Below, in pieces: positions 10,257 through 16,845 of a stretch of 64,000 bases of DNA. Position numbers and translations under genes: made by a program. The stretch covers positions 261,264-325,263 of the forward strand of contig JAFVEA010000009.1 of assembly GCA_017478185.1 (NCBI GenBank), written 5' to 3'. Numbering within the stretch: position 1 is the stretch's first letter; each line of letters opens with the position of its first letter. The stretch comes from Clostridia bacterium. GTDB taxonomy: Bacteria; Bacillota; Clostridia; Christensenellales; UBA1242. The notes below the pieces were generated by a model. It was not told the DNA's origin. It did not search any database and saw only the letters and a list, made by a program, of their open reading frames with translations.

Positions 10257-11069
10257 ATGGCGAAAAGTAAAATTATAAAGCAACTTGTTAATGAGGAAAT
10301 TAGTCTTTCGATAGCGTTAAAACGGCTTTTAATTTTGGCTACAGATTTAAATATTAATGAATTAGTAAATTGGGTTAATTGTGAAATAAAAGGATATGGG
10401 GAAAATCCTCTCCCAAAATATAGAAAAATAAAAAGTTGGACTTTTAGATATAATGGAGTGTTGGGACGAAGTGTAATAAAAGGTGCCAACCTTGATATTG
10501 GTTTTTTCAAAAAAAAGACTTTGGATGAAATTATTTATATTGATGTAAGAGAATCAATATCATCTATTGAGGAAAAAGCAAAATCTGATGCGCATGAGTT
10601 AATGATAGATAGGTCTTACTTGGCTGGAGAGGTCTATAAAAATAGTTTTGATGGTTTTGATGGTCTTCAATGTATAAGTATATCACAAATATTTAGTGTT
10701 GAACAATTTAAATCTATTTGTAATTCTGTTTTGGGGATAGTATTAGATGTGTTGTTGGAACTTGATAAAAAATTTGGTAATCTTGATGAACTTGATTTAG
10801 ATGCAACCAAATTGGATAAACAAGAATTTGAAGAAACAAAAAAGAATATACAAGTTATAATAAACTATTCGCCTATAACGGTTGAAAAAGATTTGAACAT
10901 CAAATCTGAAAATACTGTTTTGGGGGAAGGACAAATTACTAAAACCACAGATAATAAAAAGATTAAAGATTCAAATACTGGGATTGGAACCAATGTGGTT
11001 GATAAAAAATTTACACCAACTCTTTCAATAGATGGGGAAGCAATAAAAAAGATTATTAAAGGAAATTAA
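10257..11069 (+). CDS. AbiTii-domain protein
   Basis: The N-terminus ISLSIALKRLLILATDLNINELVNWVNCEIKGYGENPLPKYRKI matches the remembered AbiTii pattern (L-K-x-L-A ... W-V-x-x-E-L-x-G-Y ... P-x-Y-R). Confidence 0.55.
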   Translation: MAKSKIIKQLVNEEISLSIALKRLLILATDLNINELVNWVNCEIKGYGENPLPKYRKIKSWTFRYNGVLGRSVIKGANLDIGFFKKKTLDEIIYIDVRESISSIEEKAKSDAHELMIDRSYLAGEVYKNSFDGFDGLQCISISQIFSVEQFKSICNSVLGIVLDVLLELDKKFGNLDELDLDATKLDKQEFEETKKNIQVIINYSPITVEKDLNIKSENTVLGEGQITKTTDNKKIKDSNTGIGTNVVDKKFTPTLSIDGEAIKKIIKGN

Positions 11070-11071
11070 AA

Positions 11072-12880
11072 ATGGCAAATATATCAAAGATAAAAAGAGA
11101 TAAGATGTTGTCTTTTATAAATAAACTAAGAGATGAACACAAAACAGATGATGAATGTTTAATTGCACTAGGAGAAATTGAGTCGGCACTCACTTCAAAA
11201 AAATATGGTCTTGTTTGGGAAGAACATGAAGAAGAAGTTGATAAACAAATGGTTGATAATATCCCTGTTTTTGTTGAAGATGAATCAAAAGAAATCATAT
11301 CCGATAATAATGGGAAATTTAATTTTCTTTTAGAGGGGGACAATCTTCATTCTTTATATCTATTGGAAAAAACGCATAAAGAAAAAATTGATCTTATTTA
11401 CATTGATCCACCTTACAATACAGGGAACAAAGATTTTATATATGATGACGCGTTTGTTGATGAAGAAGATTCATTTAGGCATAGCAAATGGTTAAGTTTT
11501 ATGGCAGAGCGATTAAGAATAGCTAGACGCCTATTGACTGATGAAGGTGTCATTTTTATTCAAATTAACGATATTGAAGTTGCTCAATTAAAAGTGCTAT
11601 GTGATGAAATATTTGGGGAATATAATTTTTTAAATCTTATTAGTATTAAAATGAAAAATATAGCTGGTGCTTCTGGTGGGGGACAAGATAAAAAATTTAA
11701 AAAGAACTGCGAATATATTTTGATATATACAAAAAATTATGATATGTTCCCTCTATTAAATAGTGTTTATGATTATAAAGAAATTGGCGATTTAGTAGAA
11801 GAATATAGAAAAAACAATGTTAGTTGGAAGTACACATCTATATTATTAGACAGTGGTGATAAAGAGTATATTGCTTCAACTATCGACGGTGATGGTAATG
11901 AAATTAAGATATTTAAAAGAGAGAATTATATCATTAAATCCATCGGTCAAATTATGAAAGAAGAATCCCTGACTGAAAAGGAAGTGTATTACAAATATGG
12001 TAAAAATATTTTTATGACAGCAATGCCTCAAAGTTCCATTCGCCCAAGGGTTATGAATAAACTTGAGGAATTAGGGCTTTCACTAGATTTTTACTCTATT
12101 GAATATGTACCAAAAACTGGAAAGAATAAGGGCCGTACATATGAACAATTTTATAAAGGAGAGAAAAGTCGCCTTCTAGCTTGGTTGCGAGATGTTAGTG
12201 AAGAAAAAGATGGTGTACTTTATAAAAAGGATTTGCAAGGTACTTATTGGGACTTTACACCGTATATCAACAATTTAACAAAAGAAGGCGATATAGAATT
12301 TAATAATGGTAAAAAGCCTATTGAATTGTTAAAACGCATTATTGGAATGTTCCCACAAAAAGATATTACAGTTTTAGATTATTTTGCGGGCTCTGGTTCT
12401 ACTGGACATGCGGTATTACAACTAAATAAAGAAGATGATGGTACTAGAAATTTTATTTTATGTACAAATAATGATAACGATATTTGTGCCGACATAACAT
12501 TGCCTAGATTAAAAAATGCAATATTCGGTTCAGAACATACTCAAGCCACGCAAGGCAATTTAAAATATTATAAAACTGATTTTGTTTCCAAAAGTGAAGA
12601 AATGTTGTCAGATGCTCTTCTTGAACATATTAAGGAAATGGTTCAACTTGAACATATGGTAAAGATTGATGGTAAGAATTATATACTTTTATTGGATGAT
12701 GAACAGGCAGATGAATTGGAAAAGAATTGGAAAGATTACAAAGATTTGAAAGGCATTTATATATCCAAGAATGTATTTTTAACATCATCTCAAAATGAAT
12801 TATTTAACACTGTTGAAATGAAAGTAATTCCTGATTATTATTTTAATTTTGAATTAAAGGAGGTTGGTGAAACATGGTAG
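11072..12880 (+). CDS. mod: type III R-M DNA methyltransferase (Mod)
   Basis: Motif IV IDLIYIDPPYNTG, motif I VLDYFAGSGSTGHAV (beta-class order), with a variable region between them. Confidence 0.85.
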   Translation: MANISKIKRDKMLSFINKLRDEHKTDDECLIALGEIESALTSKKYGLVWEEHEEEVDKQMVDNIPVFVEDESKEIISDNNGKFNFLLEGDNLHSLYLLEKTHKEKIDLIYIDPPYNTGNKDFIYDDAFVDEEDSFRHSKWLSFMAERLRIARRLLTDEGVIFIQINDIEVAQLKVLCDEIFGEYNFLNLISIKMKNIAGASGGGQDKKFKKNCEYILIYTKNYDMFPLLNSVYDYKEIGDLVEEYRKNNVSWKYTSILLDSGDKEYIASTIDGDGNEIKIFKRENYIIKSIGQIMKEESLTEKEVYYKYGKNIFMTAMPQSSIRPRVMNKLEELGLSLDFYSIEYVPKTGKNKGRTYEQFYKGEKSRLLAWLRDVSEEKDGVLYKKDLQGTYWDFTPYINNLTKEGDIEFNNGKKPIELLKRIIGMFPQKDITVLDYFAGSGSTGHAVLQLNKEDDGTRNFILCTNNDNDICADITLPRLKNAIFGSEHTQATQGNLKYYKTDFVSKSEEMLSDALLEHIKEMVQLEHMVKIDGKNYILLLDDEQADELEKNWKDYKDLKGIYISKNVFLTSSQNELFNTVEMKVIPDYYFNFELKEVGETW

Positions 12881-15087: not shown

Positions 15088-15444
15088 ATGTGGAATAATA
15101 TGGAAGATTTTTTAGAGGAAATTAAACAATATAAAGAAACAAATGATATTATAGATTTGGTAGATGATGTGCTTAAATTAAGGAAGTACTATTTTTCAAT
15201 GGACTACAATTCTATGATGCAGCATATTGATCATCTTACAAATAAGTATTGGGTGGAAACTAAGATTTGGAATTCAACGAGTTCATCTCAATCAACGACT
15301 TATGAACAACAATACATTAACGCCGAAAAATTTCTAAGATTGAAAGGTTTTTCAATGTTAATACAAAAAGGTATAAAAATACAAAACCAATTAACGCAAC
15401 AAGAATTGAGTATTATTCAAAACTGGATTAAACCGATGGAGTAA
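15088..15444 (+). CDS. hypothetical protein (118 aa) coupled to res and the HEPN gene
   Basis: The ATG follows the res stop directly. No recognisable motif. Confidence 0.5.
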   Translation: MWNNMEDFLEEIKQYKETNDIIDLVDDVLKLRKYYFSMDYNSMMQHIDHLTNKYWVETKIWNSTSSSQSTTYEQQYINAEKFLRLKGFSMLIQKGIKIQNQLTQQELSIIQNWIKPME

Positions 15445-15447
15445 CAC

Positions 15448-16845
15448 ATGGAAGAATTTTGTGGATTTATTGATAATATGGAAAATATTGATGGTAAGTT
15501 TTCATATTATTTTAATAGTGATAATAAAAGGCTTATTATAAATAGATTAGAAGATGATAGTAAAAAAACTATTACATATACATTTAAAAATAAAAAATTA
15601 GATTATTTAGAAACGAGATTTTCAGATGGTCGGAATGCAATTTTTTTTAATAATGTAGTTATTTATCCATCACTGAATTCTTTAAATACTGGAATAATTA
15701 TTCCGTCATATTATTGTGTTTCAAAATATTATGGTTTTCCAATAAAAGATTTTTATGGGCTAGTTTTTAAAAGTAATTTTATTGATAAACTTTTTCACCC
15801 AACGCAAATTGTTCAATATGACAGTTTAAACATTGAAAATTGTATCAATAGTATCTCAAGAGATGGTTCAAAAACGATAATACTAAAAAAGTTTGACGAA
15901 GTTGATAAATCATTTAATTTAAAATTAAATGGTGAAAACGTAACAATAATGTTTAACATAACATCTCCAGGGACAATAAAAAAAGATGATGTGAATTTGG
16001 GTGAAATTAGCTCTAATTTTACAATAAAATTTGAGAATTCGCAAAATATAAATAAAATAAAAGAAATTTACTTGATTATAAAAAAATTCTTTCAATTTTT
16101 ATGTAATTTTAGAGATATTTCATTTGATGAAATAAAAATATTGGGGCAATTTCAAGATGATTTTAAATATCAAGAAATTGGGCGATTTTACGAGTTATTA
16201 GACAAATATGATAACAATTATAATTATAGATTAATGTGTCCTGTGTCTTATTATTTCAATAAATTACCAAAATTGTTTAAAACAATAAGTGAGGAAAAAA
16301 TTAATTTTAATTATATTCATAAAAATAATGAGGAATTATACACTGTATCACCTGAACAGTATATTAAATGTTGTGGGGCATTTGAATATAATTATAATAA
16401 TGTATTTGTTAAACCTAAAATGGGTGATTTAAGAAAAAAAGTTTTAAAGGATTTTAAAGAAAAATTTGTTGATAATAAAGATGTTTATAATAGTAAACAA
16501 CGAGATTTCTGTAAAAAAGCTTATAAAATATTAAAAAGAGATGATGCTTCAGTAGAAAATTCCTATAATAATTGTATAAATAAATATAGAGGAATATTAA
16601 AGAGATATTTACAATCATTATCTGGTATTTATGAAATTGCAAAAACGCCCCAAAAATTAGGTCATCAATTTGCTTTAAGGAGAAATTTAGATGCTCATGG
16701 CGAAATGGGATTTTTTTCTAATGATGAGATATGTGCTTATATGGTTGCTCAAGCAATAATTAATTGTTTAATATTGGAAAAGAGTGGATATTCATCAGAA
16801 GAAATTGAAATTATTATTAATCAAAAATTTGTTGAGATCAAGTAA
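15448..16845 (+). CDS. HEPN-motif protein, ApeA-like architecture
   Basis: 465 aa with a C-terminal FALRRNLDAHGE (Rx4H HEPN RNase motif) after a long N-terminal domain. Its size and layout resemble ApeA / Apea-HEPN proteins. Confidence 0.45.
   Translation: MEEFCGFIDNMENIDGKFSYYFNSDNKRLIINRLEDDSKKTITYTFKNKKLDYLETRFSDGRNAIFFNNVVIYPSLNSLNTGIIIPSYYCVSKYYGFPIKDFYGLVFKSNFIDKLFHPTQIVQYDSLNIENCINSISRDGSKTIILKKFDEVDKSFNLKLNGENVTIMFNITSPGTIKKDDVNLGEISSNFTIKFENSQNINKIKEIYLIIKKFFQFLCNFRDISFDEIKILGQFQDDFKYQEIGRFYELLDKYDNNYNYRLMCPVSYYFNKLPKLFKTISEEKINFNYIHKNNEELYTVSPEQYIKCCGAFEYNYNNVFVKPKMGDLRKKVLKDFKEKFVDNKDVYNSKQRDFCKKAYKILKRDDASVENSYNNCINKYRGILKRYLQSLSGIYEIAKTPQKLGHQFALRRNLDAHGEMGFFSNDEICAYMVAQAIINCLILEKSGYSSEEIEIIINQKFVEIK

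Follow-up and report, generated by a model that had tools for sequence, protein, structure and literature searches.

Ribonucleases (RNases) of the HEPN superfamily are metal-independent enzymes with a four-helix, all-alpha core and a conserved Rx4-6H motif, in which the arginine is usually followed by a polar residue. ApeA, a family with this domain, is reportedly a defence system of Gao et al. 2020, and in the lactococcal two-component system AbiT, the AbiTii protein has an adjacent AbiTi partner of ca. 127 amino acids (aa), a predicted endoribonuclease. Here, we describe a five-gene operon in a 64,000-nucleotide (nt) stretch of a Clostridia bacterium genome (GenBank assembly GCA_017478185.1, contig JAFVEA010000009.1, positions 261,264 to 325,263; hereafter the window, in the positions of which features are given). 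The operon contains, in this order, a gene for an AbiTii-domain protein, the mod and res genes of a type III restriction-modification (R-M) system, a gene for a small protein, and a gene for a 465-aa protein, here called X, with the features of the ApeA family. Its parts are of kinds already known, put together as a mosaic, and they do not make up a fixed new machine of five proteins.

That HEPN proteins, including those of the ApeA family, are encoded in R-M operons is already known since 2013, and embedding as a general rule since 2024. Anantharaman et al. 2013 (PMC3710099) reported R-M operons in which HEPN genes of the ApeA family are embedded, as well as fusions of AbiTii with HEPN domains, and they described ApeA_NTD1, a mostly beta domain of ca. 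300 aa with conserved aromatic residues, which is joined to HEPN. Independent defence genes embedded in R-M operons form a general pattern named "guilt by embedding" (Payne et al. 2024, 10.1101/2024.01.29.577857); the embedded candidate genes defended when cloned alone, and embedding in type I R-M was frequent. The ApeA characterised so far acts as a single protein, an anticodon nuclease switched on by a ligand (Juozapaitis et al. 2026, 10.64898/2026.01.26.701840). In the Escherichia coli ApeA proteins, alpha-helical N-terminal and Mid domains form a ligand pocket together with HEPN; Ec2ApeA is activated by 5′-phosphorylated deoxydinucleotides, and Ec1ApeA is unresponsive (10.64898/2026.01.26.701840).

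The five open reading frames (ORFs) of the operon lie on the forward strand (10257-16845), with intergenic gaps of 2, -7, 0 and 3 nt in order, and a purine-rich, Shine-Dalgarno-like run is found 5′ of each gene. The first gene (10257..11069) encodes a 270-aa protein with the AbiTii domain at residues 5-180 and a tail of ca. 90 aa (PF18864, E-value 4.9e-24, 86 bits against a gathering cut-off of 27.6; PADLOC AbiTii, 8.5e-26). It is followed by the gene of Mod (11072..12880, 602 aa), a type III N6-adenine DNA methyltransferase on the basis of profile matches (Pfam N6_N4_Mtase, 7e-39; PADLOC MTase_III, 4.5e-127) and motifs, with DPPY (motif IV) at residue 112 placed ahead of FAGSG (motif I) at residue 438. 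Res (12874..15087, 737 aa) overlaps Mod by 7 nt, and it combines a superfamily 2 (SF2) helicase with a C-terminal PD-(D/E)xK-like domain: Pfam ResIII (7.6e-17) and PADLOC REase_III (7e-16) were matched, and the helicase motifs GSGKT (residue 40), DEEH (150), SAT (176) and QTIGRIRR (338) are accompanied by a C-terminal D...ETK nuclease motif. The gene order from mod to res is that expected for type III R-M, the cleavage of which is ATP-dependent and needs two inversely oriented unmethylated sites, and the Mod-Res pair looks complete and intact. The small protein (15088..15444) and X (15448..16845) complete the operon.

The initial annotation of the operon, which had listed five closely spaced ORFs, was right as to their spacing and the motifs it quoted, all of which are present. 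Its naming of an AbiTii-domain protein, of Mod with DPPY and FAGSGST, and of Res with an SF2 helicase and a PD-ExK nuclease agrees with the Pfam and PADLOC matches above. The 118-aa protein, said to lack a known family, indeed returned nothing from library searches, and the ApeA-like HEPN protein with an Rx4H motif is supported by the invariance of RNxxAH and by transitive matches to HEPN_Apea and ApeA_NTD1.

Signals recognised by consensus match only are found at both ends of the operon. A promoter-like site (10195..10224, forward strand; AGGACA, an 18-nt spacer, and the extended -10 element TG-TATAAT) is the best forward-strand site in the intergenic DNA 5′ of the operon, 33 nt before the AbiTii gene, and a terminator-like hairpin, CCTAGTTCAACTAGG followed by a T-run (16853-16867, annotated as 16853..16877, forward strand), begins 8 nt past the stop codon of X, with a helix-turn-helix (HTH) gene convergent to it. 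A second, weak terminator-like hairpin was seen at 15067-15079. In total, the four terminator-like sites are not in excess of the shuffle expectation of 1.9 +/- 1.7. The promoter-like site, the 3′ hairpin and the ribosome-binding runs are consistent with a single transcription unit of 6.6 kb. The GC content of the X gene is 22.7%, against 28-31% in the other four genes.

Protein X is predicted to consist of a beta-rich N-terminal part (residues 1-255) and an all-alpha, HEPN_Apea-like C-terminal part (residues 256-465). It contains exactly one Rx4H motif, RNLDAH at residues 412-417, and the codons of this predicted catalytic motif (R412-N413-L414-D415-A416-H417) are located at 16681..16698 on the forward strand. 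A word-indexed search of 5.8 billion proteins returned only 13 clusters for X, all with R412 and H417 invariant, and one of these 13 close relatives matched HEPN_Apea (E-value 0.14). The profile search against 1.84 billion representative proteins retrieved 647 clusters at E≤1e-3, and 83 relatives with profile E-values of 4e-18 or better were scanned, 17-60% identical to X and most of them near full-length. In the alignment of these, R412 and H417 were the sole invariant columns, N413 was present in at least 90%, and F20, F107 and F217 of the N-terminal domain were nearly invariant. HEPN_Apea was matched by 19 of the 83 (best E-value 1.2e-7) and ApeA_NTD1 by 12 (best 9.1e-11); two relatives, P0100 (residues 311-455) and P0155 (residues 324-461), scored above the Pfam gathering score, in a region which corresponds to residues ca. 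305-460 of X. The AlphaFold2 model of X (predicted local distance difference test score, pLDDT, 81; predicted template modelling score, pTM, 0.81) has 18 strands in residues 1-250, and the C-terminal domain was modelled as all-alpha (pLDDT 84).

Because the RNxxAH motif is invariant, the relatives match the Pfam families and the predicted architecture fits, X was assigned to the lineage of ApeA_NTD1 joined to HEPN_Apea. Its status as a divergent member of this lineage, linked transitively via the relatives, is thus supported at the level of sequence, and RNase activity is predicted; the strict conservation of Rx4H in the 83 relatives indicates an enzyme under selection. PADLOC v2.0.0 gave nothing for X or the 83 relatives, the presence of an ApeA model in this release being unverified, and neither X nor the small protein matched any of its models, HEC and PDC candidates included.

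Compared with the characterised ApeA, X has the Rx4H motif likewise in the C-terminal third, is likewise a single polypeptide with a large non-catalytic N-terminal region, and has some homologues that stand alone (as in locus L001), whereas it is ca. 120 residues shorter and falls below the Pfam and PADLOC thresholds. With PrrC and RloC, X shares the attachment of a (predicted) HEPN RNase gene to an R-M operon, where a backup function is expected when restriction fails. Unlike these, X has no N-terminal ATP-binding cassette (ABC)-type ATPase domain, as its N-terminal part is beta-rich and without a family match. Furthermore, the X gene is placed at the 3′ end of the operon, while prrC lies between hsd genes, and X is found with four R-M types or none, while PrrC occurs almost exclusively within type I systems.

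These neighbourhoods were compared in ten X loci, i.e. the window and nine others, with the DNA upstream of X visible in nine of the ten (the window counted; not visible in L018). X adjoins an R-M system in seven of these nine, and the systems are of four types. In six loci (the window, L002, L003, L004, L006 and L007), X is the last gene, co-oriented after the R-M operon. The R-M genes 5′ of X are of type III in the window and in L006, where the contig opens within a type III Res, whose C-terminal end precedes X, and of type I in L002, with HsdM, HsdS, HsdR and an integrase fragment before X. In L007, a type II methylase and a type IIG enzyme (PADLOC REase_MTase_IIG) are followed by a homologue of the small protein (63% identity) and by X (89%). 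A type II-like arrangement with two methylases was found in L003 and L004, which contain an N6 methylase, one or two proteins without a family, an MT-A70 methylase and then X. In the seventh locus, L017, a type II system (C-protein, MvaI/BcnI enzyme and two methylases) is divergent to X. The two loci without R-M are L005, in which a 345-aa protein ending in RNFLFH (8951-9988) is directly 5′ of X, and L001, which has neither a co-oriented gene 5′ of X nor an R-M neighbour. L004 adjoins a Cas9 locus and L006 housekeeping genes. Scans with the X alignment for related loci yielded none in viral or metagenome contigs and two in genome contigs, and nothing was found by tblastn of X against plasmids and phages.

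Separately, the proteins of 316, 374 and 369 aa between the two methylases 5′ of X in L003 (7360-9427) and L004 (8357-9466) had no family match, and they may be uncharacterised restriction endonucleases.

The order of the five genes in the window had no second instance among the nine other X loci or among ca. 88 other AbiTii loci, and AbiTii and X were never together in these ca. 98 other loci, the AbiTii loci having been searched with a sensitive hidden Markov model of the X family. The five-gene block was thus rejected as a conserved system, and so was X as a split-off HEPN partner of AbiTii, on the analogy of the AbiTii-HEPN fusions, since the two do not co-occur elsewhere. The initial annotation had proposed one coupled five-gene system and had named the lack of co-occurrence elsewhere as what would speak against it; the five genes co-occur nowhere else found, and that proposal is abandoned. 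From its broader idea of abortive infection guarded by R-M, an Abi-type RNase on R-M operons is retained, as X recurs beside R-M, and the specific five-gene system is not. The combination, which it had called unfamiliar, is less unprecedented than that in view of earlier work (PMC3710099; 10.1101/2024.01.29.577857), although the five genes together are unique to the window.

What recurs instead is single modules. The operon appears from its comparative context to be composed of four, AbiTii, Mod-Res, the small protein and X, of which the accessory ones recur by R-M systems yet independently of one another. As in guilt by embedding, interchangeable defence genes, HEPN genes included, are situated in or on multigene defence operons, the host varying and the embedded gene being conserved. 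The difference lies in the hosts, which in the published survey were Hma, BREX, DISARM and type I R-M and which here include types III, IIG and II.

Of these modules, AbiTii appears to be a 5′ satellite of the R-M pair and an independently mobile module, because its 70%-identical homologues adjoin Mods only 35% identical to that of the window and because its hosts are of several R-M types. Such homologues, followed by the 35%-identical type III Mod and then Res, are present in L011 and L012, and another of 70% identity in L016 has no R-M genes downstream. In L013, a 53%-identical AbiTii comes after an SNF2 helicase and is followed by Mod, two small genes and Res, and in L015 an AbiTii of 46% identity is directly upstream of an MmeI-like type IIG gene. 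Among 53 metagenome AbiTii loci flanked by 3 kb or more, 14 had same-strand R-M genes at most 5 kb away, a lower bound, as few seed sequences were used; three of the 14 had the order SNF2-AbiTii-Mod-Res, and eleven were type I operons, most of these with AbiTii between hsdS and hsdR. The host operons of AbiTii are thus of types I, III and IIG. Its immediate partners elsewhere were membrane-anchored proteins or another HEPN protein, different from X.

The window gene has a clear AbiTii domain, as in the AbiT system of Lactococcus, and, as in the AbiTii-HEPN fusions of the c2405 and Ymh families (PMC3710099), a HEPN protein is encoded in the same operon. In contrast to lactococcal AbiT, no gene of the size of AbiTi adjoins it: the ORF list of the window contains no small ORF beside the AbiTii gene, and mod is next. 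As to an AbiTi partner within the operon, the 118-aa small protein has no family match and was not directly compared with the AbiTi sequence. The profile search of the PDB with the AbiTii protein gave nothing. The AbiTii of this clade most likely acts as an accessory of R-M or of a separate effector, and it is the least defined part of the operon.

Three further AbiTii contexts were noted. A recurrent cassette inside metagenomic type I R-M operons (L030, L032, L038, L040, L042, L045 and L051) has the order HsdM, HsdS, AbiTii, a protein of 216-231 aa with a transmembrane helix at its C-terminus, a ca. 280-aa protein, and HsdR. An SNF2 helicase, AbiTii, a type III-like Mod, a ca. 208-aa protein and Res recur in L013, L019, L034 and L060, with variants: AbiTii is duplicated in L034, where no ca. 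208-aa gene was seen, and L013 has two small genes. Directly 3′ of AbiTii in L074 (1156-2880) and L076 is a 574-aa protein with an N-terminal RNSVAH.

The small protein is annotated with 118 aa, or 114 aa when started from nt 15100; its homologues begin at Met5 (nt 15100), and the gap after res may therefore be 12 nt rather than 0. Pfam, PADLOC, NCBIfam, PHROGs and the PDB, the last also by profile search, returned nothing for it, and it had five homologous clusters among the 5.8 billion proteins. In all three loci in which it was seen, the small protein is encoded directly 3′ of a helicase-containing restriction enzyme, i.e. the type III Res of the window and the type IIG enzymes of L007 and L008. 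In L008 (5676-6808), what comes after the small homologue is not X but a protein of 262 aa for which two transmembrane helices are predicted, which suggests in comparison with L007 that the effector is swappable behind the same type IIG enzyme. The small protein is present in only two of the ten X loci (the window and L007), and it was rejected as an obligate antitoxin of X, because the other eight are without it.

Alignment of the window with L007 locates an exchange inside the small gene. The first 200 nt of the small gene have a nucleotide identity of 60-64%, as against 86-97% at ca. 15390-16876, and this jump places a recombination breakpoint within the gene, so that the 3′ end of small, X and the terminator moved as one cassette (15390..16876, forward strand, delimited by sliding identity and blastn end-points). 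Judged by these identities, the cassette was shared with L007 recently.

The operon as a whole is carried by what looks like an integrated mobile element (window 216-26968), on the basis of its integrase, Zot, Rep, PcfJ and PcfK content. Element genes include a tyrosine integrase (216-1598, reverse strand), a Zot-like NTPase (7816-8649), a G2P-type rolling-circle Rep (8940-9959), PcfJ (20866-22188, reverse strand) and a PcfK-MutS_I fusion (22199-23014, reverse strand). L003 has the same backbone at 48-73% identity (a 689-aa protein, the Zot-like protein, the G2P-type Rep, PcfJ and PcfK), with a 59%-identical X in the same slot and an unrelated R-M module, and the variable slot of the two is delimited by the Rep gene and the HTH and YpsA genes. 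X is beside PcfJ/PcfK genes in three loci, and L018, like L003, shares the backbone of the window.

Two repeat regions of the element were also recorded. At 9949-10160, past the stop codon of Rep and ahead of the operon promoter, are three perfect inverted repeats with arms of 13, 15 and 17 nt, which might serve as a replication origin or as the terminator of the Rep module. Near tRNA-Thr (27021-27096), three tandem copies of 79 nt (27305-27541) were found, the first ca. 40 nt of each resembling the reverse complement of the 5′ half of the tRNA. These are probably stacked attachment (att) remnants, left by repeated integration at a tRNA hot spot and marking the right edge of the element.

On the whole, and with moderate confidence, we read the operon as cargo of this mobile element, in which a type III R-M system and two independently moving add-ons, AbiTii at the 5′ end and small, X and the terminator at the 3′ end, provide layered defence. 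As the first line, Mod would methylate the host DNA and Res would cut unmodified incoming DNA, as their sequence features indicate. X would be a latent HEPN RNase with R412, N413 and H417 as its catalytic residues, and by analogy with the characterised ApeA its target would probably be the tRNA anticodon. An infection cue would be read by its own beta-rich N-terminal domain, and X, once switched on, would halt translation and thereby cause abortive infection as the second line. The link between X and R-M would then be one of co-transcription, co-transfer and complementary action, with no fixed complex of five proteins. X as an autonomous backup in layered defence is favoured because its neighbours are interchangeable, it also occurs without R-M, ApeA is a single-protein system, and embedded genes defend alone.

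Several observations weigh against this reading. X itself had no direct match in Pfam (E≤0.1), PADLOC, NCBIfam, PHROGs or PDB sequences, and Foldseek gave no significant match for the full model of X against the PDB and BFVD, or for the C-terminal domain against the PDB, where the HEPN toxin HepT (7ae6) was found at a non-significant E-value of 2.4 only. The sample is small, with ten X loci and three of the small protein. The N-terminal 255 residues of X are predicted to be beta-rich, of the ApeA_NTD1 type, whereas that region is alpha-helical in the characterised E. coli ApeA, and the trigger of the latter is therefore not transferable to X. Finally, the tight junctions of X with its preceding gene (0-12 nt), together with the position of small, always after a restriction enzyme of the helicase type and before an effector gene, would fit physical coupling as well.

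Such coupling is the core of the alternative that survives best, a guard of the PrrC kind as in the initial annotation, which is possible but less likely than layered defence and, taken by itself, improbable. In it, X would be held inactive by contact with Res or Mod, with small as an adaptor, and would be freed as an anticodon nuclease when an anti-restriction protein of a phage disables the R-M system. The case of PrrC-EcoprrI provides a well-established model (PMC3710099). In the window and in L003-L007, X has the orientation of the gene before it and lies no more than 12 nt from it, and the exchanged cassette kept X together with the adjoining 3′ end of small. Small, in turn, was seen solely after helicase-type restriction enzymes and before either X or the protein with two transmembrane helices, as an adaptor might be. 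The guard is disfavoured because the partners of X are R-M systems of four types with unrelated subunits, or none at all (L001, L005); an integrase fragment intervenes in L002, and the R-M genes of L017 are divergent. Moreover, small is encoded in only two of ten X loci, and X has no counterpart of the ABC-ATPase domain through which PrrC and RloC are regulated. Nor have small (63% aa identity) and X (89%) diverged in step between the window and L007.

The role of the small protein may also be considered by itself. It might be a dedicated adaptor that docks on translocating restriction enzymes of the helicase type (type III Res, type IIG) and through which the state of these enzymes would govern exchangeable suicide effectors, a proposal which we regard as improbable. 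Were it true, the adaptor would make a plug-in module of R-M-guarded abortive infection, distinct from PrrC, and its effectors would be an ApeA-type HEPN RNase in the window and L007, or the protein with two transmembrane helices in L008.

Ranked lower again, and doubtful, is the absence of any functional relation, with X, AbiTii and small as selfish or unrelated cargo of the variable slot, or as addiction modules that stabilise the element. The slot between Rep and the HTH and YpsA genes does vary between the window and L003, three X loci have a PcfJ/PcfK backbone alongside, these modules are combined in the window only, and embedding may simply be a way of linking horizontal transfer. Against this, the seven of nine X loci that border R-M do not all belong to this element family (L004, L006), and the catalytic motif strictly conserved in the 83 relatives points to selection. 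Attractive but least probable of all is a switching-on of X by small deoxynucleotide fragments, supplied by restriction with subsequent exonuclease action or by a genome degradation that the phage drives and restriction does not stop, since the activation of Ec2ApeA by 5′-phosphorylated deoxydinucleotides and the way in which a partner-independent cue would explain association with any R-M type are opposed by the lack, in the X model, of the alpha-helical N-terminal domain that forms the Ec2ApeA pocket, by the unresponsiveness of Ec1ApeA to these ligands, and by the counter-productivity of killing the cell upon successful restriction unless a threshold applies.

Layered defence on a mobile element reveals no new principle of immunity. 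What is new is a Clostridia-associated clade of ca. 450-aa proteins with ApeA_NTD1 and HEPN_Apea, missed by Pfam, PADLOC v2.0.0, NCBIfam and PHROGs, which is repeatedly attached at the 3′ end of R-M operons, with four R-M types represented. New are also two unstudied R-M satellites, i.e. AbiTii in operons of types I and III, and the small protein between restriction enzymes and swappable effectors. Together, these loci offer a natural test bed for whether R-M-linked HEPN nucleases are physically guarded like PrrC or are merely co-inherited, autonomous backups.

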